Shown here: positions 3-50,082 of the stretch, piece by piece | Layout of the letters: the number at the start of each line of letters is the position of its first letter | Position numbering within the stretch: the stretch's first letter is position 1 | IMG/VR virus record: IMGVR_UViG_3300021431_000011 | Reading direction: 5' to 3' (one strand) | DNA from: an uncultured virus (IMG/VR IMGVR_UViG_3300021431_000011) | Lineage: Duplodnaviria; Heunggongvirae; Uroviricota; Caudoviricetes | DNA: 64,000 nucleotides | The notes under the pieces: generated by a model | The model's database searches: none | What the model was told of the DNA's origin: nothing | What the model saw: the letters and a program-made list of their open reading frames with translations, nothing else | Program-made: the position numbers and the translations under genes

Positions 3-188
3 TACGATCTTCTTAAATGGATTGCACTTATTGTTCTTCCCGCTCTCGGTACTTTATATTTTGGACTTGCTAGGATTTGGGGACTCCCGTTCGGTGAGGA
101 AATTGTTGGTACTATTACTGTTATCGATACGTTTCTTGGCGCACTTCTTGGCGTTAGTACTAATAATTATTATAAGCAGAATGAGTAA
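3..188 (+). CDS. Holin, Dp-1 type (3' part; start lies outside the window)
   Basis: Frame 3 reads YDLLKWIALIVLPALGTLYFGLARIWGLPFGEEIVGTITVIDTFLGALLGVS..., the typical Dp-1 holin pattern with two hydrophobic segments; not in the ORF track. Confidence 0.85.
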   Translation, partial: YDLLKWIALIVLPALGTLYFGLARIWGLPFGEEIVGTITVIDTFLGALLGVSTNNYYKQNE

Positions 189-2400: not shown

Positions 2401-2449
2401 TTAACATTTTAGATCTAAATGAGTTCGCCAATTTTACCGCCTCTTATAT

Positions 2450-2541
2450 GAGAAGAATAGTAAAATAGTAGGTTAAAAGGGAAACCGCTATCACCGGACA
2501 GAATTACGGGTTCGAGCCCCGTCTATTTTACTATTCTTTTT
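2450..2541 (+). ncRNA. tRNA-like RNA without an anticodon loop
   Basis: 16-bp closing helix 2453-2468/2523-2538, D-arm GGTT/AACC, T-arm ACGGG-TTCGAGC-CCCGT, own promoter motif at 2426. Confidence 0.65.
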
Positions 2542-2575
2542 ATTTTTTAACTTCTATAAGAATAGGAGAGTAGAA

Positions 2576-3235
2576 GTGGAATACCTACCATCATTTATAG
2601 ATGATCTTCATATTGATATTAAGCCATCATTTATTGCCCATTCATTTAGAGATGAACATGATGCTAAAATGATGTACGGATTGCCTAAGGTAAAGAAATT
2701 TCCTATGCCTGATGCAAAACATGTACGATCTGCTATTAGGTTTTTTAACTATGCTAAACCATCTCAAGAACAAGAGTTAGCCAATGCTATTCTAGCTCGA
2801 ATGGATGACTATGGTATCGACCCTGATGATATTAATGTCGGTGATGATAATCGTTTTAAGAAATATTTACAGCATTCATATTTAGCACATCATGGCATTA
2901 AAGGAATGCATTGGGGTGTGAGACGCTATCAGAATTCTGATGGCAGTTTGACAAATGCTGGAAAACAACACTATAATACGAGATTGGCAAACAAAGGTGA
3001 CAAACTTCGATCAGAAGGTTACGATCTATCATCCAATAAATTAGCTTTAACTAAAAAAGAAAGAATAGCAAATTCTATAGCAGTAGGTGCAGGAATGGTT
3101 GCTAGTATAATCACTGAAAATCCTATACCACTTATGAGCACACAAGTAGCTATATTAGCGCAACATAAACGCAATCGCAAAGCAGTTTTAGAATCTATAA
3201 AACGTGAACGTAATACCAAAATTAAAGGTTCATAA
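2576..3235 (+). CDS. HHGIKG-tag protein with an extra N-terminal domain
   Basis: MEYLPSFID leader; YGLP..KKFPMPDAKHVRSAIRFFN domain; internal LAHHGIKGMHWGVRR. Confidence 0.8.
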   Translation: MEYLPSFIDDLHIDIKPSFIAHSFRDEHDAKMMYGLPKVKKFPMPDAKHVRSAIRFFNYAKPSQEQELANAILARMDDYGIDPDDINVGDDNRFKKYLQHSYLAHHGIKGMHWGVRRYQNSDGSLTNAGKQHYNTRLANKGDKLRSEGYDLSSNKLALTKKERIANSIAVGAGMVASIITENPIPLMSTQVAILAQHKRNRKAVLESIKRERNTKIKGS

Positions 3236-3731: not shown

Positions 3732-4472
3732 GTGGAGTATCTTCCCACTTTTAGTGATCAATTAGATGTGGATTATATTTCACATCATGGTATTAAAGGA
3801 ATGCATTGGGGTATTAGAAGATACCAGAATCCTGATGGAACATTAACGGATGCTGGAAGAAAACACTATGCTGTTCGAGAATCTAAAGGTAGTTTTTTAG
3901 ATCTCAATCGAACTTTTATGGATGCCGATTTAAAGAAAGCAAATGAAAAAGGCGGACATGCTAATAGAGATGTCGTTTACAATCAGGCAATTAAAGCCCT
4001 TAAAAACGATCCAAAAATAAAAGCTGCAGAAGATGATTGTAAGAAGTCTGCAAGAGAAGCCTATGCTGCATATGCAGATTTATATAACAAAAAAGCTGCC
4101 GAACAAGGGGTCGATCATCGTCTTGATCCGAAAACTTTTAACTGGTATAAACAAATAAATGAATTAGATTATGATGTAGACATGGCAGTATGGGACGCAC
4201 GTGGAAAAGAAGCTGAAAAATGGTATAATGCACAAGATCGTCATGAGAATAATGTTGATAAATTAATGAATGCTTATGAGCAGGCTGAAAGTCGTTTTAT
4301 TAAGCAATATCATAATGCGGTTTTGACTGATATTCCAAATGACGGATCAAAGCAAGCTGTTAAAAGAATATTGGACCGTTATGGCGAGTTAAACACATTC
4401 GATTTTACTGAATCGCTTGACACAGATGGTCCGGACTATGGTTGGTCTACATATAATTTATTCGATGTTTAA
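3732..4472 (+). CDS. HHGIKG-tag protein, variable C-terminus
   Basis: MEYLPTFSDQLDVDYISHHGIKGMHWGIRRYQN; AGGAGG RBS. Confidence 0.8.
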   Translation: MEYLPTFSDQLDVDYISHHGIKGMHWGIRRYQNPDGTLTDAGRKHYAVRESKGSFLDLNRTFMDADLKKANEKGGHANRDVVYNQAIKALKNDPKIKAAEDDCKKSAREAYAAYADLYNKKAAEQGVDHRLDPKTFNWYKQINELDYDVDMAVWDARGKEAEKWYNAQDRHENNVDKLMNAYEQAESRFIKQYHNAVLTDIPNDGSKQAVKRILDRYGELNTFDFTESLDTDGPDYGWSTYNLFDV

Positions 4473-5195: not shown

Positions 5196-5858
5196 ATGGA
5201 GTATCTTCCGACTTTTATCGATCAATTAGATGTAGATTATATTTCACATCATGGAATTAAAGGAATGCATTGGGGTATAAGAAGGTATCAGAATACTGAT
5301 GGATCGTATACTTCTGCTGGTAAAGCCCGATATAATGCTAATCAATCGAATGGTAAGCGATCTTTTTCGAAATCTAAAGCTGCGAAAATTGCTGCTGGAG
5401 CGGCAATAACAGCGGCAGGTGTTGCTGCCTTAGCATATATGAATAATTCTGATTTGCCAACTATATCTGATAAAATGGCTGAAAAAGCAGTTAGCAATTA
5501 TTGCAAGAGGACTAGAAAAGCTGCTGGAGATTTGTATGACGAAACGGTAGATACTTACAATGCTTGTATAAAGGCTTTTGACGGTGATTGGCCTAGTATA
5601 GATGCGAAAACGTGTAGAGCAAATGCTCGACAAGTTCGAAAAGATGCAAATGATATGTTTCAGGCTCATTCTAAAAGTCGTATACCATTTGTCGATAAAG
5701 CTTGGCGTAATAGTGCAGGAACTTCTCGACGAAGTAAAGCTCGTAATGATATGATTAGAACCGACGAAGCGATTAGCAATTATCGTGATTCTATGCTAGA
5801 CTATGCTGATATTTACGATAGTATGGCTAAAGAATTAGATCGTCGACGTGGAAATTAA
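5196..5858 (+). CDS. HHGIKG-tag protein, variable C-terminus
   Basis: First ~36 codons nearly identical to 3732..4472, then unrelated. Confidence 0.8.
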   Translation: MEYLPTFIDQLDVDYISHHGIKGMHWGIRRYQNTDGSYTSAGKARYNANQSNGKRSFSKSKAAKIAAGAAITAAGVAALAYMNNSDLPTISDKMAEKAVSNYCKRTRKAAGDLYDETVDTYNACIKAFDGDWPSIDAKTCRANARQVRKDANDMFQAHSKSRIPFVDKAWRNSAGTSRRSKARNDMIRTDEAISNYRDSMLDYADIYDSMAKELDRRRGN

Positions 5859-6229: not shown

Positions 6230-6341
6230 TATATTTGGGGCTGGAGGTCGTAAGATTTCCAGCTCCTTATATTTTTGCCCATCTCGCTAAAATTACCTTT
6301 CTTATTATAGGAAAGGTTGGAAACAAGAGAAAGGCATTATC

Positions 6342-6521
6342 ATGGCTAAGATGAACAAGGTTCAGAAGGTTAGGCTCGTTGCAGAGATCAACCTTCTCAG
6401 AGGAGTTTGTCGCCTTGCTGCAAGGCATTACAAGGCGGAGGGGAATCTGACAAAGGTTAGGCACTGGAACGACCTTGCGTATAAGGGAGATGTTCTTTAC
6501 GGAATAGCCACAATGGCATAA
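6342..6521 (+). CDS. 59-aa early protein (MAKMNKVQKVRLVAEINLL...)
   Basis: Promoter 6285, GAAAGG RBS; below the ORF-track cutoff. Confidence 0.7.
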   Translation: MAKMNKVQKVRLVAEINLLRGVCRLAARHYKAEGNLTKVRHWNDLAYKGDVLYGIATMA

Positions 6522-6676
6522 GGCATAATTGGACAACCGTCCAAAAGAGAAGTTTATGTATAGAAAGTTTATACATGGACTTTCTCTTTTTCGTTATATT
6601 TATCTTCTATAAAAATTTTTGTCTTCGCATATTTTACTGCACATAATATGAGAAAGGAGCAAGAATAGAGGAGATT

Positions 6677-6886
6677 ATGAACAATCTTGGATTATTTGGA
6701 ATAATTGTTGTAGGAACAATGGTCGGGAATCGCATGTGCGATATAGCAGATTATATTTGTAAAAAGCGTAGAAGGGCTAAGGCAGTAGCCGAAGCAAACA
6801 AACGCGGAGGTCAACAATCTGCTCGTATAGAAAGTGATATGTATACTATTGAAGAATTAATTAAAAAGTATGGAGATTTGTTGTAA
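6677..6886 (+). CDS. Small protein with N-terminal hydrophobic segment
   Basis: Promoter 6626, GAGGAG RBS. Confidence 0.7.
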   Translation: MNNLGLFGIIVVGTMVGNRMCDIADYICKKRRRAKAVAEANKRGGQQSARIESDMYTIEELIKKYGDLL

Positions 6887-6997
6887 AAATCTAAATTTGC
6901 TCCTTTCTTTTTTGTCATATTTACCTTTTGTAAAAATTTTTGCCTCGTTAAATTTACCTTTTGTATTATAAGAAGGGCGCTAGAAGGAGCGATAAAA

Positions 6998-7162
6998 ATG
7001 AAAAAGAACAAATGTGAAATTTGTGGTAAGTATAATGGCAAGGTTTTTAAGAGCGACATATTTGGTAAGGTGCATTTGTGTGATAAATGCATTAGAGAAT
7101 ATGGAGGTGTTAAACGAACCATTGAAAGTTACGAGTTGGGCGATGTTATTTTGGTTAAGTAG
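6998..7162 (+). CDS. 54-aa zinc-finger protein
   Basis: MKKNKCEICG...HLCDKC (CxxC...CxxC); AAGGAG RBS; promoter 6946. Confidence 0.7.
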   Translation: MKKNKCEICGKYNGKVFKSDIFGKVHLCDKCIREYGGVKRTIESYELGDVILVK

Positions 7163-7265
7163 CGTAATAAAAGCGCCCTTCTTTTTTACCATTGATTATT
7201 TTTTTTTTACAATTTTTTCGCAGTTTTAACTATTCATATAATGAGGTCAAGAAAAGGAGACTTAA

Positions 7266-7466
7266 ATGAGTAACAAAGGTTGGATCATTATTGGAACAGT
7301 GATTAGTTACATGATTGTTAAGGCGATGACTGATGAGTTGAAACATGAGCGAGAAAAACAAGAAACAATGCTTATTGAAACGACTACGAGATCGTTGACA
7401 AATGCATTCATAAAAGACTTGGAAGATAAAAATAATGTTAGGCCAGAATTGAGACTTGTTAAGTAA
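7266..7466 (+). CDS. Small membrane-anchored protein
   Basis: Promoter 7219, AAGGAG RBS, N-terminal TM. Confidence 0.7.
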   Translation: MSNKGWIIIGTVISYMIVKAMTDELKHEREKQETMLIETTTRSLTNAFIKDLEDKNNVRPELRLVK

Positions 7467-7550
7467 ATTAATGTTCTTAGACCTCAAGTATAGACGCTGC
7501 TTTTACAGGGCGTTTATATTTTTCTTCGCCATAATAACCATTCATATAAT

Positions 7551-7691
7551 GAGGAAGAGGAGTATAAACCCCGGCAGGCTTAGGTGTCTTACCACTGCGC
7601 GGAGCCCTAAGTTAGGTCGGACAAATAGTTCAATGGTAGAACGCCGATCGATAATGACGGAGACTCAGGTTCGAAGCCTGAAACTTCCTTT
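7551..7691 (+). ncRNA. tRNA-like RNA with degenerate anticodon and acceptor arms
   Basis: TA-GTTC-AATGGTA-GAAC D-arm, TCAGG-TTCGAAG-CCTGA T-arm, closing AGGAAG/CTTCCT, promoter 7527. Confidence 0.6.
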
Positions 7692-7761
7692 ATATTTTTG
7701 CCTTCGCTAAAAATACCTTCTTTAATATAAGAAAGGTTGGACCTAGTAGAAAGGTACAAAA

Positions 7762-8683: not shown

Positions 8684-8817
8684 CCAAAAAGAGAGGTCAA
8701 CGTATAGAAAGTTTATACGTGGGCTTTCTCTTTTTCGTTATATTTACTTTTTGTAAAAATTTTTGTCTCGCTAAAAATACTATTCCTTTTACGAAGCTGA
8801 AAAGAAAGGAGAATGTT

Positions 8818-9790: not shown

Positions 9791-9811
9791 CTTGCGCTTA
9801 TATAGGAATCT

Positions 9812-10231
9812 TGTAGCGGACCTAGGTGGTATGAGGGAGACTAGGCAAAGAGGAATCGACAAAGGTCGAGCAGTTGATCTCATAGAAAGAAAAGAATTCG
9901 ATGGTATCAAAATTAATATCGTAACCGAAGCGAATGTATTCTGGATGATTCTTGAGCATGGAGAAGGATTGCCTATGCCAATACATATTCAGTAGTCTGT
10001 TCCGAGTATAGACGCCGCTTTTATAGGGCGTTTATATTTTTGCCTCGCCAAAATTACTGCATATATTTTAGAAAGGGAGAGAAACTAAGAGATCGTAGAG
10101 CCATTGCTGGTGAAAACCCAGCCATCTATGCGAACGGCCACCTGTAGTCAGCATAGACTCGTCCCTTTTACTGTAGTGGACCTAGGTGGTATGAGGGAGA
10201 CTAGGCAAAGAGGAATCGACAAAGGTCGAGC
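9812..10231 (+). repeat. 60-nt structured direct repeat (9812-9871, 10172-10231)
   Basis: 59/60 identity; hairpins CCTAG/CTAGG and TCGAC-AAAG-GTCGA. Confidence 0.9.
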
Positions 10232-10398
10232 GGTAAATCCGTGGGAAAAACAGGTATTTATTTTTTTCTCGCAAAAATTACGTTTCATATAATGAGATGG
10301 AGTAGAGTAAGAATGTAGCAGGTAAACAGTGCTTGTTATATTTTTATTGCTGCTCAAAATTTTTATGGCCAAAAGTGCCAAGAGAGGAGTTTTGTGGT

Positions 10399-19316: not shown

Positions 19317-19432
19317 TTCGCAAAAATTACCATTCCTTTAATGAGGAGATAGGAGAGTGAAGTACGTTGAGATTATACGAGAAGCTCTCCTTTATATTTT
19401 TCCTCATTAAATAAATCTCTTGAAAGGAGAAA

Positions 19433-19843
19433 ATGATGGCAGTCGGTATTACAGTCAATTTCGAAGAGTTTATGACTAAAAAGTGGAACGAGTTTCACCC
19501 CAATGAAAAGATGCCCGAGATTGGAACTAAGGAGTTTGTTGCCTTTTGTGACGAAGTTGCGGCAGCATCTCAGCCTGTTTCGGCAACTAATTCTAATAAT
19601 ACTAAGACAACCAGCAATACAAATACTTACGAGGACGATACCCATCGCTATACAAAGGTCGATGGGAAGTATATTCGTAAGATCATTAATGACTGGATTG
19701 ATGATAATCCTGGTAAGACTATTGGATTCGTATTTCTTGCTGGGGCTATTCTTACTTGCAAAGTCTTTCAGCATATTTGCACCAGGGCAGTGTACAAGGG
19801 CAATCTGCGTACCATCAAGTATTTGATGAAGTATTCTAAGTAA
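19433..19843 (+). CDS. Membrane-associated hypothetical protein
   Basis: Promoter 19319, GAAAGGAG RBS. Confidence 0.7.
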   Translation: MMAVGITVNFEEFMTKKWNEFHPNEKMPEIGTKEFVAFCDEVAAASQPVSATNSNNTKTTSNTNTYEDDTHRYTKVDGKYIRKIINDWIDDNPGKTIGFVFLAGAILTCKVFQHICTRAVYKGNLRTIKYLMKYSK

Positions 19844-19881
19844 ATGATATTTCATAAGCTCAATAGAAAGCGAGAACTAAA

Positions 19882-42736: not shown

Positions 42737-43277
42737 ACATGCATTTTTAGGAGCGAGTAAATATTCTTGGCTCGGTTATGATGCTGAAAAGTTAAGAGAG
42801 TCATATTTGAGCAATCAAGCTCGATATAGAGGAACTCAGTTGCATGAGCTTGCTAGTCAACTTATTAAATTAGGCGTTAAGCTTCCTGATACTCATCAAA
42901 CGCTTAATTTGTTTGTTAACGATGCTATTGGCTATCGAATGCAATCTGAGCAAATTTTATATTATTCCAATAATTGTTTTGGAACTGCTGATGCTATATC
43001 CTATAAAGAACGTGATAAGAAACTCAGAATTCACGATCTTAAGACCGGAGTAACCCCAGCATCTATGAAGCAGTTGTATATTTACACAGCATTATTTTGC
43101 TTAGAGTATGCTATGGATCCACATCAAATGGACATAGAACTTCGTATTTATCAGTCAGATGATGTCGAAATTGAGATCCCTGAAACAACAGATATTTTGC
43201 AAGTTATGCAACAGATTCGCAGTTTCGACATGATTCTGAATGAACTTCGAGAAGAGGAGGAAAATGCATGGATGTAG
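42702..43277 (+). CDS. PD-(D/E)XK (Cas4/RecB-like) exonuclease
   Basis: GT.LH, E, GTADAI, IHDLKTG, QL.IY. Confidence 0.8.
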   Translation: MNFNKHFDLEGKHAFLGASKYSWLGYDAEKLRESYLSNQARYRGTQLHELASQLIKLGVKLPDTHQTLNLFVNDAIGYRMQSEQILYYSNNCFGTADAISYKERDKKLRIHDLKTGVTPASMKQLYIYTALFCLEYAMDPHQMDIELRIYQSDDVEIEIPETTDILQVMQQIRSFDMILNELREEEENAWM

Positions 43278-46030
43278 ACGAACGTGAGTATGCGTCATAT
43301 TTGATGCATTATGGTACTCCTCGTCATTCTGGTAGGTATCCGTGGGGTTCTGGCGATAATCCTTATCAGCGTAACGCTAATTTTAGGTCATATGTTCTAG
43401 ATCTTAGGCATCAAGGAATGAGCGATGCTGAAATTGCACGTGGCATGGGAATGACCAAGAACGAATTAGTGGCTGCTATGTCTCAAGCTCGTGCTGAGAA
43501 TAGAGCAGAAGATGTTGCTGAAGCTAAACGGCTTATAGCTAAGGGATATTCTCAGTCAGCAGCAGCTCGTCGTATGGGCATTAATGAATCGCAAGTACGA
43601 AATCTGCTTAAGGAAGATATTCAAGATCGAGCGAATCGTTCTGCTGATACTGCCGAATTGCTTAAGCGAGAGCTTGAAGAGCATGGGGGTTATATTGACA
43701 TCGGTCGTGGGTCAGAAGAGTATCTTGGTACTACGCAATATGTTCTAAAAAATGCCGTGGCTCAGCTTCATAACGAGGGTTACGAAATCCATAACGTTAA
43801 GGTACAACAAGCTGGAACAGGCAAAAACACGACTGTTCAAGTATTATGCCCTCCCGGTACTCCATGGGTAGAAGTTGCTAACAACAAGGGTGATATTCGG
43901 TTGGTTAATGCACCATATGATCCAACCAGTAGCACTGGCAGATCAATGCTTGGACTTGAAAAACCGGTTGGCATTGATCCAAAGCGTGTCATGATTCGGT
44001 ATGCGGATGATGTTGGTCCTGATGGCGGAAAGGGTATTGAGAAAGACGGCGTAATCGAGCTTCGTAGAGGTGTTGATGACATATCTTTAGGAAAAGCTAA
44101 TTACGCACAGGTTCGTATTAATGTTGGCGATACTCATTATTTAAAGGGCATGGCAGTTTATGGTGATAACATGCCAGATGGAGTAGATGTCATATTTAAT
44201 ACGAATAAGCATCGCGATACTCCTATGATGGGGACTAAAGACAATACCGTTCTAAAAGAAATGAAACGAAACAAAGAAACTGGCGAAATTGATTGGGATA
44301 ATCCATTTGGCGCCACTATAAAAACCGAAGGCGACACGAGTACCAGTCTAAAACTTGCACAAAGATATTATGTAGATAAGAACGGCAAAAAGAAATTATC
44401 GGCAATTAATGTAGTTAATGAAGAAGGCGATTGGGAAACTTGGGCACCCACATTGTCAAGCCAGTTCTTATCTAAGCAAACGCCAGCTATGGCAAAACGT
44501 CAGCTTAAGATTGCATCTGATGCACGTCAAGCAGAATATGACGACATAATGACATTAACCAATCCGACTGTAAAAAAGAAGCTATTACTTGAATTTGCTG
44601 ATGAATGTGATTCTGCAGCTGTTCATTTAAAGGCTGCTGCTTTGCCTAGACAGTCTAGTCATGTCATATTACCAGTACCAGGAATTAAAGAAAATGAGAT
44701 ATTTGCTCCAAATTATCGAAATGGAGAGCAAGTAGCTCTTGTTCGACATCCTCATGCGGGTCGCTTTGAGATTCCTCTCCTTACGGTAAACAACAATTCT
44801 AAAGAAGCCGCAAGAGTTATGGGAAAAAATTCACCAGATGCGGTTGGTATCAATGCTAAAACTGCGGCCATATTATCTGGCGCAGATTTTGACGGCGATA
44901 GCGTTCTTGTTATTCCTACTAAAGGTACTAATCTTAAAGCGCAAGCTCCTCTTAAAGGGCTTAAAGACTTCGAGCCAAAAGATGCATATCGTGCATATCC
45001 TGGAATGCCTGAAACATCTAAGAAAAATGGTTTTAACAAACAGATAGAAATGGGTAAAGTTTCTAATCTAATTACAGATATGACCTTAAAAGGTGCTAAT
45101 GACGAAGAACTTGCTAGAGCGGTTAGGCATTCTATGGTTGTAATAGATGCCGAAAAGCATAATTTGGATTGGCGACGTTCTGCTAGAGAAAATGGCATAT
45201 CTGAACTTAAGAAAAAGTATCAAGGCGGCCCCAATTCTGGAGCATCAACATTAATTTCTAAAGCTAAAAGCATGGCTGTAGTTCCTGACCGTAAGGAAAT
45301 ATCGCCCGATAAACGTACTGGCGAACGGCGTTATATTCCTACTGGCAAAACGCATAAAGATAGAAAAACTGGTAAAGATGTTCTTAATACTACAGTAACC
45401 ACCAAAATGTTCGAAGCAAAAGATGCCAATGATTTGTCTTCTGGCACCGTTATGGAGAACATATATGCCGCTCATGCTAATAAGCTTAAAAGTCTTGCTA
45501 ACCAAGCCCGAAAAGAAGCTCTTTCTTCGGAATCTGTGCCATATTCTGCATCTGCTAGAAAAGCTTATGCTAAAGAGGTTGCTTCTTTGGATGGAAAGTA
45601 CAAACTTGCTCAACGCAATAAACCATTAGAGCGTCAAGCACAGCTTATTGCAGAAACTGTGGTAAAAGCTAAAATAAGAGCTAATCCAGAACTTAAAGAT
45701 GACAAAGATCATTTGAAGAAAGTTCAGCAACAAGCTCTTAGAGAAGCTAGAGAACGTACTGGTGCTAAGAAACGTGATTTCGACATTACCGATAAGGAGT
45801 GGGAAGCTATTCAAGCTGGAGCAATACATAAGACTCGCTTAGAAGCATTGTTGGCTACTGCTGATAGCGATCGTGTTCATGAGCTTGCTATGCCTAAAAC
45901 TACTCGTACTGTCAACCCTAATGTCATATCTAGAGCTAAAGCTATGCAGGCATCTGGTAAGACTCAAGCTGAAATCGCAGATGCTCTTGGTGTTAGTACT
46001 ACTACAGTCAATACAATCCTGCGGAATTAG
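43268..46030 (+). CDS. Single-chain two-barrel (DFDGD) RNA polymerase with HTH domains
   Basis: RHPHAG..E.P and GADFDGD catalytic motif; two N-terminal HTHs and one C-terminal HTH; N-terminal LMHYG..WG tag variant. Confidence 0.75.
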   Translation: MDVDEREYASYLMHYGTPRHSGRYPWGSGDNPYQRNANFRSYVLDLRHQGMSDAEIARGMGMTKNELVAAMSQARAENRAEDVAEAKRLIAKGYSQSAAARRMGINESQVRNLLKEDIQDRANRSADTAELLKRELEEHGGYIDIGRGSEEYLGTTQYVLKNAVAQLHNEGYEIHNVKVQQAGTGKNTTVQVLCPPGTPWVEVANNKGDIRLVNAPYDPTSSTGRSMLGLEKPVGIDPKRVMIRYADDVGPDGGKGIEKDGVIELRRGVDDISLGKANYAQVRINVGDTHYLKGMAVYGDNMPDGVDVIFNTNKHRDTPMMGTKDNTVLKEMKRNKETGEIDWDNPFGATIKTEGDTSTSLKLAQRYYVDKNGKKKLSAINVVNEEGDWETWAPTLSSQFLSKQTPAMAKRQLKIASDARQAEYDDIMTLTNPTVKKKLLLEFADECDSAAVHLKAAALPRQSSHVILPVPGIKENEIFAPNYRNGEQVALVRHPHAGRFEIPLLTVNNNSKEAARVMGKNSPDAVGINAKTAAILSGADFDGDSVLVIPTKGTNLKAQAPLKGLKDFEPKDAYRAYPGMPETSKKNGFNKQIEMGKVSNLITDMTLKGANDEELARAVRHSMVVIDAEKHNLDWRRSARENGISELKKKYQGGPNSGASTLISKAKSMAVVPDRKEISPDKRTGERRYIPTGKTHKDRKTGKDVLNTTVTTKMFEAKDANDLSSGTVMENIYAAHANKLKSLANQARKEALSSESVPYSASARKAYAKEVASLDGKYKLAQRNKPLERQAQLIAETVVKAKIRANPELKDDKDHLKKVQQQALREARERTGAKKRDFDITDKEWEAIQAGAIHKTRLEALLATADSDRVHELAMPKTTRTVNPNVISRAKAMQASGKTQAEIADALGVSTTTVNTILRN

Positions 46031-47090: not shown

Positions 47091-47242
47091 TGAGAGCCAA
47101 CCCCCTATGCCAAAAATTGATGAATATCAGTAATATTCATAAAAATCGCAAATAGACCAAAAAACTGATCTTTTTTGCCTTTTTCTGATATAAAATTGCT
47201 AATAGGGGGGAGGGGATGCCAAAAATTTGGATGCCTCCAAAT

Positions 47243-47251
47243 CGCCGCACT
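47243..47251. other. Probable cos site (CGCCGCACT)
   Basis: Between GGGGGAGGGG and CCCCGGGG, upstream of small terminase/HNH; resembles the 9-nt CGCCG..CT 3' overhangs recalled for related actinophages. Confidence 0.6.
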
Positions 47252-47481
47252 CTCTAAAAATTCCCCGGGGGTACTATTTAAGGACTTCTTTCCATACTTT
47301 TTCGCGGAGCTCTCTTTGTTTTATCCTCTCCGACTTATGTGCCTATTGCATTTTCTCGATATTCCGCTCATCGAGATCTCCTTTCAAGAGTCTTAGCTGA
47401 TAAAAGTCTCTTAAAACTTAGAGAGTTCCACGAAGAAGTATGGGAAAACTTACCAAAAAGTATATTTAAATTGGAGAAAAC

Positions 47482-48217: not shown

Positions 48218-48283
48218 GGCAAAAAAAATAATAGATAGTAAATACAGAAAAAGAACGTAGACGAATTTTTTAGATTCCGATTC

Positions 48284-48400
48284 TTACAAGAACAAAACGC
48301 CTAATCTATACATTTTGTATACTACTCCACCGCATAATCCTACAGATAGAACTACTCCAGTAGCCAATACTGAGTATAGTATTACGTCGTTTTTATCCAT
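48284..48400 (-). CDS. 38-aa hydrophobic peptide
   Basis: MDKNDVILYSVLATGVVLSVGLCGGVVYKMYRLGVLFL; GAAAGGA RBS; minus-strand promoter motif at 48457. Confidence 0.7.
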   Translation of the reverse strand: MDKNDVILYSVLATGVVLSVGLCGGVVYKMYRLGVLFL

Positions 48401-48475
48401 TATAATTTCCTTTCCCAAATCGTCTACGTTCTCATATAATTAATAGTATTTTTAACGAAGTAAGAAAGGATAACC

Positions 48476-49116: not shown

Positions 49117-50082
49117 ATGGGCTATGAAGATAATTATCTCATGCACCACGGAATTAAAGGTATGAAGTGGGGTGTTCGTCGTTTTCGCAATTACGACGGT
49201 ACTTTAACTAGTGCAGGTAAAGCTCAGCGTAGAGCACAGAGTTCTGGTGGCGGGTCCTCTCGCGGTGGTATGTCTTCTACGACCAAGAAGCGTCTTGCAA
49301 CCGCTGCAAAAGTTGCTGGAGCAGCAGCTGCCGTTGGCGGTGCGGCATATCTTGCTAATCGAGCCAGTGGTGGACAGCTTGCAAGTACTGCTCGTCGAGT
49401 TGCTGGTGACGCGAATGCTGCTCGACAGCTTGCCGGCGAAGCCGTGGCAAATTCTCGAGCTGGTCGCGCGGTAAAGCGTGCTGCTTCTAGCGCTCGTGGT
49501 ATTGCTAATACTGCTAGAGATAATGCTTCTCGTGTTGGTAGTAGAGCTGCTTCTAAGGGTCGTAGCTTGGCTATTGGAGCTGGTGCTACTGCTAGATCAG
49601 CCGCTAGTAGCGCTCGTGGTATTGCTAATACTACTAGAGATAATGCTTCTCGTGCTGGACAGCGGATAGCTTCTAAGAGTCGTAGCGCGGCTATTGGAGC
49701 AGGAGCAACTGCTCGTTCTGCTGCGGCTAGTGCTCGCGGTGCTGCTAATACTGCTAGAGAGAATCTTCGTCTTGCTGGTAGTAGAGCTGCTTCTAAGAGT
49801 CGTAGCACGGCTATCGGAGCAGGAGCAGGAGCTCGAGCTGCTGTTTCTAGGGCTCGAAGCTCTGCTGAGTACCTTCGTAGTCGGGCTAATGGCGGTGTTT
49901 ACAATACGTCTAGAGCAAAAGGCTCTGGGTCTAGACTCGTTGATGCAGCATATAATGCTGCTCGTAAGAAGACTGGGCGAAAGACGTCGTCTGGTAAGAG
50001 AGATTACGTTAGCGAGTTAGTTCGGGCTAGCATGGAAGATGGCGCACGTGCAACGCGTAGAGCACGTAAACGTTATTCGTAA
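49117..50082 (+). CDS. HHGIKG-tag protein, Ala/Arg/Ser-rich with 40-aa repeats
   Basis: LMHHGIKGMKWGVRR; ~3 x 120-bp repeats starting at 49492. Confidence 0.8.
   Translation: MGYEDNYLMHHGIKGMKWGVRRFRNYDGTLTSAGKAQRRAQSSGGGSSRGGMSSTTKKRLATAAKVAGAAAAVGGAAYLANRASGGQLASTARRVAGDANAARQLAGEAVANSRAGRAVKRAASSARGIANTARDNASRVGSRAASKGRSLAIGAGATARSAASSARGIANTTRDNASRAGQRIASKSRSAAIGAGATARSAAASARGAANTARENLRLAGSRAASKSRSTAIGAGAGARAAVSRARSSAEYLRSRANGGVYNTSRAKGSGSRLVDAAYNAARKKTGRKTSSGKRDYVSELVRASMEDGARATRRARKRYS

Follow-up and report, generated by a model that had tools for sequence, protein, structure and literature searches.

The 64,000-nucleotide (nt) stretch of DNA analysed here (the window; IMG/VR record IMGVR_UViG_3300021431_000011) comes from a tailed phage of ~82 kb that is seen in gut metagenomes only. 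It encodes a primase-polymerase (~50% identical to its counterparts in Faecalibacterium and Arthrobacter phages), terminase, portal, protease and tape-measure proteins, together with five tRNA genes called by ARAGORN. Its first 29 kb form an array of small genes, most of them equipped with a separate copy of one conserved promoter motif. Here, and at one further site near 48.4 kb, we found small promoter-gene-terminator cassettes enclosed by inverted repeats that are placed such that the first bases of a transcript could pair with its last. The best-supported reading of the sequence, itself partly supported, is that such end-pairing helices may serve as terminator and/or end shield of the RNA.

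The promoter motif consists of TCG, AAAWTTAC, a TATAAT-like box 6 nt further on and a purine-rich stretch (logo derived from 50 distinct instances in three genomes), and it occurs 24 times on the plus strand and twice on the minus strand of the window. Unit 1 carries the motif at 6624..6649 (+), followed by the Shine-Dalgarno-like 5' arm AGAAAGGAGCAA (6651..6662, +), which is the exact 12-base-pair (bp) reverse complement of 6897-6908. Between the arms, the list of open reading frames (ORFs) and a check for a Shine-Dalgarno sequence gave an ORF of 69 amino acids with a hydrophobic, membrane-like N-terminal segment (6677..6886, +), and the exactly complementary 3' arm at 6897-6908 leads into a T-run at 6909-6913 (6897..6913, +). 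Unit 2 is built in the same manner, with its promoter at 6944..6969 (+), the 5' arm AAGAAGGGCGCT at 6970..6981 (+), an ORF for a soluble, zinc-ribbon-like protein of 54 amino acids with a CxxC...CxxC pattern (6998..7162, +) and an exact 12-bp complement at 7172-7183 that continues into a T-run (7172..7187, +). Unit 3 (promoter anchor 7217), encoding a 66-amino-acid protein with a hydrophobic segment, is a borderline case. Its 5' arm (7242..7253, +), lying largely upstream of a canonical transcription start, pairs with the 3' arm (7474..7486, +) through 7 + 5 bp round a 1-nt bulge, and a separate local hairpin and T-run follow at ~7497-7524.

The unit near 48.4 kb lies on the minus strand, opposite to its neighbours and with no co-directional genes upstream. 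The same promoter motif (48459-48434) and the 5' arm (48432-48420; together 48420..48459, -) precede an ORF for a hydrophobic peptide of 38 amino acids (48284..48400, -), behind which the exact 13-bp complement (48264-48252) adjoins a T-run at 48251-48247 (48247..48264, -). The whole unit of promoter, arm, gene, arm and T-run is a clean insertion of ~215 bp that is shared by the window and its relative G002, while G001 has the same site without it; the small-unit region is also missing from G001. Searches of curated families (Pfam, PHROG) gave no match of note for the proteins of units 1-3 and the minus-strand unit, and no toxin family. Another unit, found through the inverted-repeat and leader searches, is tRNA-like and comprises a promoter, a 16-bp closing helix (2453-2468/2523-2538) and a T-run (2424..2548, +).

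An initial annotation of this DNA had listed eight end-pairing units, of which we could confirm four: the 12-bp pairs 6651-6662/6897-6908 and 6970-6981/7172-7183 and the 13-bp pair 48252-48264/48420-48432 are exact, and 7242-7253/7474-7486 is bulged. It was also right that the 3' arms of units 1 and 2 and of the minus-strand unit run into a T-tract. The 'shorter versions' at 8794/9179, 10072/10162, 12619/12899 and 28879/29186 amount to only 6-7 complementary bases, which is within the range of non-cognate controls.

The inverted repeats exceed chance expectation. Exact repeats of at least 12 bp at a spacing of 60-800 nt number 11 in the window vs 4.44 +/- 2.04 in 100 block-wise dinucleotide shuffles, none of which reached 11. 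The left arm starts 1-4 nt past the -10 box in the three exact pairs and in the bulged pair, and the right arm of the three exact pairs adjoins a T-run. Across all four long cases the left arm starts 26-29 nt past the promoter anchor, the right arm directly precedes a T-run without any spacer, and the arms are 70-246 nt apart. A comparison of the 36-nt leaders of 19 promoters with the entire plus strand brought up no more than five complements of at least 12 nt. Three of these follow shortly after their own promoter, immediately ahead of a T-run (units 2424, 6624 and 6944, named after their promoter anchors, the last two being units 1 and 2), and the remaining two are low-complexity, Shine-Dalgarno-like matches. 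Across three genomes, a cognate match of 12-16 nt was present in 6 of 51 promoter-unit instances, representing three distinct units, whereas non-cognate matches of the same leaders reached a maximum of 7-8 nt.

Scoring of the complementarity against controls, as the initial annotation had proposed, singles out a few units and leaves the others unremarkable. The 5' and 3' ends of units 6624 and 6944 match over 12 nt; among 49 and 48 non-cognate pairings, respectively, the longest match is 8. In terms of duplex energy, these two and, marginally, unit 3 (cognate -18.9 vs best non-cognate -18.6 kcal/mol) beat all 34 non-cognate pairings, but the other 15 of 18 units do not; excluded from this comparison were anchor 356, which lacks a -10 box and lies within an ORF, and, for tandem motifs, the four half-anchors upstream. 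One half of each arm (AGAAAG-like vs CTTTCT-like) fits the general leader/tail consensus. The other halves (GAGCAA, GGCGCT and CGTAGACGA) are specific to their cassette and lie outside any shared linker, yet they match exactly.

Relatives of the phage were recovered by several routes. Searching the phage collection with the window gave no near match. The linker pattern retrieved only G002 and G003 from viral contigs, and only G002 again and a copy of G003 from metagenome contigs; protein and alignment queries with units 1 and 2 returned only G003, L020 and G002. Among 57 loci with a DUF7211 protein, screened for an inverted repeat of at least 10 bp combined with a -10 box and a T-run, only L019 (= G003), L020 and L022 (= G002) passed, and promoter-motif units in the DUF7211 loci provided informative cassettes in L020 and L046 only. 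G002 (82,331 bp, 99% complete) is 91-96% identical to the window over the aligned parts, G003 is a fragment of 30.6 kb, and L020 is a remoter relative, a 25-kb contig with 74-91% identity.

Comparison with these relatives suggests that the arms are of importance. The unit 1 copy of L020 encodes a protein with 72% amino acid identity and differs at 41 of 260 aligned positions, and all three differences that fall within the arms preserve or better the pairing. They include a double change from C:G to T:A at window positions 6660/6899 and a change from T to C opposite G6650, which turns a G.U into a G-C pair at 6650/6909. The duplexes are stronger within each sequence (cognate -18.9 and -18.5 kcal/mol) than between them (crossed -15.6 and -16.9 kcal/mol). 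In G002, the gene of unit 2 has diverged to 27 of 51 identical residues (53%), with 39 of 51 codons changed and all four cysteines kept, and the 9-nt spacer after the stop codon retains two of its nine bases; the promoter, both arms, the 5' untranslated region and the T-run are unchanged. Parts of the region also occur in ruminant-gut runs (X3-X20). Further contigs covering units 1-2 are ~98% or more identical to the window (10-14 changed letters per 615-1149 bases), and there is no covariation among the differences listed for them.

Folding predictions are in line with end pairing in two of the protein-coding units. The helix of unit 1 is part of the minimum-energy fold with a pair probability of ~1 for three assumed starts, and the same holds for the minus-strand helix (pair probability ~1). 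In the minus-strand unit, pairing is predicted to extend across the ribosome-binding site and start codon; this inner extension (-17.5 kcal/mol) was equalled by a single shuffle out of 500 and by four out of 500 genomic windows, and is better than chance. The ribosome-binding sites of units 1 and 2 are not clearly sequestered in the predicted folds, and the predicted helix of unit 2 forms only if the transcript starts at the arm.

The sites where end-paired transcripts would stop differ from the conventional terminators of the window, eight of which fold into long, perfect hairpins at -14.5 to -25.5 kcal/mol. Local folds before the T-runs of the end-paired units reach -5.2 (unit 1), -12.5 (unit 2) and -7.0 kcal/mol (minus-strand unit), within an overall range of -4 to -13.7 kcal/mol. 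The earlier statement that no local hairpin exists at these three sites is roughly right, the local hairpins being weak or absent. For unit 2, the local alternative hairpin declines from -12.5 kcal/mol in the window to -9.1 in G003 and -4.0 in G002, where it leaves the arm unpaired. A consensus terminator scan found no terminator at the arm/T-run sites. Of the two hallmarks of an intrinsic terminator, a stable helix directly before the U-tract is predicted there, and a local short-loop hairpin is missing.

End pairing is not a property of every unit, as had been claimed. Among the 18 of 19 plus-strand promoter units that could be scored, three have a 5' complement that is 9 nt or longer and adjoins the T-run, one of them being the tRNA-like gene; the minus-strand unit adds one more, and the bulged unit 3 stays borderline, outside the three. 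Twelve of the 18 have an ordinary local hairpin of -10 kcal/mol or below beside the T-run, and unit 6944 has both features. We therefore regard the design as real but restricted to a minority of cassettes. Hairpins at the 5' terminus were considered as a general design and rejected, with only 3 of 19 leaders (3261, 5894 and 28854) having one near the expected 5' end and few shuffles being as stable.

Two units without a protein product extend the set to tRNA-like RNAs. In the unit at 2424..2548, the 16-bp helix comprises a 7-bp acceptor stem and a 9-bp leader-trailer extension. The tRNA-like gene itself (2462-2530) reaches 41.8 bits with the Rfam tRNA model (cut-off 29) in permissive mode only, with no call from the default search or ARAGORN. 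Its acceptor stem is A/U-rich and its anticodon arm shortened, and in architecture it weakly resembles SpF41, a Streptococcus small RNA (29.8 bits, cut-off 52). The second unit (7525..7699, +) is non-coding and has a tRNA-like D/anticodon/T core (Rfam 27.8 bits, below 29) and a 7-bp closing helix (7551-7557/7684-7690) beside a T-run. In five sequences, the outer pair of this helix is G.U in three, A-U in one and G-C in one, and three compensatory pairs occur in the T arm of L046. The RNA of ~145 nt, with its own promoter and T-run, is conserved (window 7551-7697, +; L003 9770-9917; L020 8097-8245; L046 2145-2291, -) and contains a hairpin domain of ~50 nt inserted between the 5' strand of the closing helix and the D arm; 7551-7697 matched no Rfam family above its cut-off.

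From the repeats, their register, specificity and conservation, the one compensatory change and the weakness of the local hairpins, we infer that the helix forms in the RNA, causes termination and stabilises the message. Some of the small cassettes (units 1 and 2, the minus-strand unit and the two tRNA-like RNA units) would give a transcript in which the initial bases pair with the terminal ones. On leaving the polymerase, the 3' arm would pair with the free 5' end and the transcript would be released; in the finished RNA, the same helix could conceal both ends from 5'- and 3'-dependent nucleases, and in the minus-strand unit it might also span the ribosome-binding site and start codon. Like a canonical intrinsic terminator, the arrangement consists of a helix with G-C pairs followed by a U-tract. 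It differs in that the loop is the whole transcript (190-235 nt; 54 nt in the tRNA-like case) and that the upstream arm is the 5' end of the RNA. Since the cassette-specific helix stands directly at the U-tract, it would therefore take the place of the local hairpin. That the 5'-3' helix both supplies the terminator stem at the U-tract and shields the two RNA ends is, in our estimation, about evenly poised between right and wrong. The initial annotation had proposed a terminator and/or shield as well, an idea to which specificity, register, T-runs, weak or absent local hairpins, arm conservation and the compensatory change lend weight, and from which the minority of units concerned and the 6-9 bp left by a canonical start detract.

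Several observations weigh against a role of the helices in termination and end protection. A sigma-70-type spacing from the TATAAT box puts the start 5-6 nt inside the arms, which leaves 6-9 bp of helix. With starts at 6975 and 6976, the predicted helix of unit 2 collapses to the local hairpin (pair probability 0.04 and 0.00), and in units 1 and 2 the inward continuation of the panhandle is no better than chance (61 and 51 of 500 shuffles as good). A hairpin looped by a whole gene of 190-235 nt would have to form during the pause at the U-tract, a kinetically demanding and unproven step. Covariation amounts to one double change and two one-sided changes, the arms being otherwise invariant, and unit 3 is uncompensated in L020, where there is an additional G opposite the bulged A. 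As noted, 12 of the 18 plus-strand units have an ordinary hairpin. Finally, G003 and three gut runs contain a second copy of the tRNA-like 3' arm behind the next gene, where the local structure is 0.0 kcal/mol. One mismatch affects this copy in runs X6 and X9; in X3 it has two changes, G002 has lost part of it, and in the window other sequence stands in its place; given its decay across relatives, it resembles a leftover of recombination rather than a selected terminator.

The position of the arms relative to the promoter also bears on a different function, in which the helices act within longer read-through RNAs as insulating or processing stalks that loop out individual genes, with termination being leaky or left to the weak local hairpins. 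The complementarity starts 1-4 nt past the TATAAT box, upstream of a canonical start, such that only a read-through RNA or one with an unusual start would contain the full 12-13 bp. This upstream part contains both the L020 change from G.U to G-C and the variable outer pair of the non-coding unit; together with the position of the complementarity, these two pairing-preserving changes suggest that transcription starts unusually close to the box or that read-through RNAs are under selection. Neighbouring units are, moreover, all co-directional. However, every unit has a strong promoter motif of its own, the right arm always stands at a T-run that a processing stalk would not need, and the minus-strand unit has no co-directional genes upstream. 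Helices of 12-13 bp are also short for a double-strand-specific nuclease. We consider read-through stalks an unlikely explanation.

Pairing between the two ends of a small mRNA is familiar from toxin genes. In hok/Sok of plasmid R1, it closes the full-length mRNA into a compact and long-lived form, which is supported by coupled covariations across the family; hok further needs 3' trimming and an antisense RNA. The cassettes described here share a predicted pairing of the mRNA ends with hok, but there is no evidence in them of trimming or antisense RNA, and covariation comes down to one pair. For type I toxin mRNAs more broadly, end pairing is established (PMC5416894; PMC6733600, citing the hok family). 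In the former, an 11-bp 5'-3' helix in the aapA1 mRNA of Helicobacter pylori is reported to end transcription efficiently and make the RNA very stable, and to explain poor translation. The likeness to aapA1/IsoA1 (Arnion et al. 2017; Masachis et al. 2019) covers a transcript of ~250 nt, a small hydrophobic peptide and an end helix of ~11 bp. In silico, the mRNAs of our cassettes are likewise closed by their ends (exact 12-13 bp; predicted folds). They differ from aapA1 in that no antisense antitoxin was found, one product is soluble and zinc-ribbon-like, the genes sit in a shuffled phage cassette array, and the ribosome-binding site is predicted to be clearly covered in the minus-strand unit only.

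The minus-strand unit, and perhaps unit 1, could be type I toxin-like genes. As with hok and aapA1, end pairing would then serve mainly to preserve the full-length mRNA and hold back its translation until the 3' end has been trimmed, and termination would be a side effect. Their products of 38 and 69 amino acids are hydrophobic, the latter with a membrane-like segment, and the predicted rod of the minus-strand RNA covers the ribosome-binding site and start codon better than chance. That unit is also an autonomous cassette of ~215 bp on the strand opposite to its neighbours and missing in G001, and the hok and aapA mRNAs employ the 5'-3' interaction in the same way. On the other hand, scans for the phage motif and for sigma-70-like promoters yielded no antisense RNA gene: the phage motif is absent from the strand opposite any unit, and sigma-70-like matches near 48.4 kb number 6 vs 6.8 expected, leaving room for a weak or unconventional promoter. 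Neither a toxin-family match nor a clearly sequestered ribosome-binding site in units 1 and 2 was found, and the unit 2 product is soluble and zinc-ribbon-like. We give a toxin-like role a low probability.

Another bacterial message offers a further parallel for end protection by pairing. In hbs of Bacillus subtilis, a fully complementary 14-nt pairing of the 5' with the 3' untranslated region, just upstream of the terminator and tested by compensatory mutations, shields the 5' region from cleavage (PMC5737220, Braun et al. 2017). The hbs mRNA retains a canonical terminator hairpin and local 5' hairpins, whereas here the long-range helix adjoins the U-tract and strong local hairpins are missing. 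The initial annotation knew of no description of the design as a phage strategy. Our literature searches, which left aside the supplements of the works cited, yielded no account of end-paired cassettes in phages; as a general statement, that the design is undescribed is too broad a claim, considering that aapA1, hok and hbs mRNAs pair their ends. What differs here, judging from the DNA, is that every shuffled phage cassette has a helix of its own, which would stand in for the local terminator hairpin, that no antisense partner turned up and that one unit encodes a soluble protein.

The shuffling itself has been considered as the origin of the repeats. Gene content differs cassette by cassette among G002, G003 and L020, and near-identical terminator-plus-promoter linkers lie between many adjacent genes (four in the window, near 6540, 7948, 8350 and 8700). 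In contigs from other gut samples, joints fall exactly at T-runs; unit 3, for example, is lost in X5 through a joint from 7187 to 7519, and a contig of X3 departs exactly at 6908. The region thereby resembles the promoter-early stem-loop (PeSL) cassettes of T4-type phages, for which Arbiol et al. 2010 (PMC2839356) describe repeated terminator-plus-promoter linkers between small orphan genes and mosaicism. Linkers flanking small orphan genes, shuffling among relatives and exchanges at the linkers are found in both. The difference is that PeSL terminators are local stem-loops common to the cassettes, whereas here every gene has its own arms, one on each side.

In such a mosaic, the inverted repeats could be by-products without an RNA function, left by cassette shuffling or by the juxtaposition of a purine-rich leader and a pyrimidine-rich tail, and kept only because the relatives are close. 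The breakpoints at T-runs (X5 at 7187/7519, X3 at 6908), the consensus half of each arm and the duplicated 3' arm in G003, which resembles a recombination footprint, would all fit. Set against this, the cassette-specific halves match exactly outside the shared linkers, the arms of unit 2 are identical although the enclosed gene has diverged to 53%, and L020 carries a compensatory change. To our knowledge, no recombination mechanism makes a different inverted repeat round each gene, and an origin as mere by-products appears rather improbable. The notion that the arms are terminal repeats of a transposon-like or integron-like element was rejected, because no two pairs are alike and the arms enclose neither promoter nor T-run.

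The end-pairing helix as terminator and shield, if it operates as proposed, would make termination and RNA stability depend on where the RNA starts and thus tie promoter choice to 3'-end formation. Each mobile mini-gene would have a portable, self-contained device for ending and protecting its message, whatever the genomic surroundings. A mechanism proposed so far for a bacterial toxin mRNA would extend to phage accessory genes, one of them non-toxin-like, and the cassettes would be natural parts for compact, insulated expression units.

A candidate for the polymerase that reads the conserved promoter motif is encoded in the window itself. The ORF at 43268-46030 (+) encodes a 920-amino-acid protein with a full-length match to PHROG 4291 ('RNA-dependent RNA polymerase'; E = 0, 1162 bits), a GADFDGD motif and helix-turn-helix domains at both termini; no solved structure matches it by sequence. 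It is in all likelihood a DNA-dependent RNA polymerase of the YonO type, with two barrels in a single chain (PMC5467207), and could be the reader of the motif. In G002, sigma region 2 (PF04542) was not found, and a search for T7-like RNA polymerase (PF00940) gave no match; as its control gave none either, the blank for PF00940 is uninformative. In one scenario, the 34-bp promoter would be read by this phage polymerase and not by that of the host, transcription would start right after the TATAAT box, the RNA would have a blunt, fully paired 5'-triphosphate end, and the enzyme would be released by a helix formed with the RNA's own 5' end. We hold this combination to be very doubtful. If true, it would constitute a promoter-coupled terminator, acting only on RNAs that start at a cassette promoter or carry its leader.

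Other features of the promoter regions deserve mention. At promoters 8022, 8421, 7703 and 6283, the surroundings of the TATAAT box are nearly palindromic (CTTTC..TATA..GAAAG), which accounts for part of the purine-rich leader consensus and could be an operator for a dimeric regulator. At 19317-19400 (+), a promoter motif directly precedes a hairpin of ~45 nt (GGAGAG...CTCTCC) and a T-run and faces a minus-strand ORF (19373-19855); possible readings are a very short transcript and an attenuator.

With regard to further RNAs, Rfam matches at 6295-6358 (HDV-like, 25.7 bits vs a cut-off of 44) and to snoRNA families were taken as chance, and the folds of 7552-7700 and 10071-10262 are not stabler than those of shuffled sequences (z = -1.05 and 0.13). 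A 60-nt element occurs twice (9810-9874 and 10170-10235, +), is 98% identical to its G002 counterpart and has a promoter-like motif before each copy but no ORF; it is possibly another small RNA.

Five paralogous genes (235-1245, 2576-3235, 3732-4472, 5196-5858 and 49117-50082, +) have in common a short DUF7211 motif and DNA repeats of ~100 nt. DUF7211-type genes are present in 57 viral loci, and one of the paralogues in the window contains a perfect TTGACA-18-TATAAT match (2948-2977). The interval 47100-47300, at which the G002 contig starts and stops, has no genes but G-runs and is probably a genome terminus or packaging site; behind it lie a small-terminase-like ORF and then an HNH endonuclease gene.

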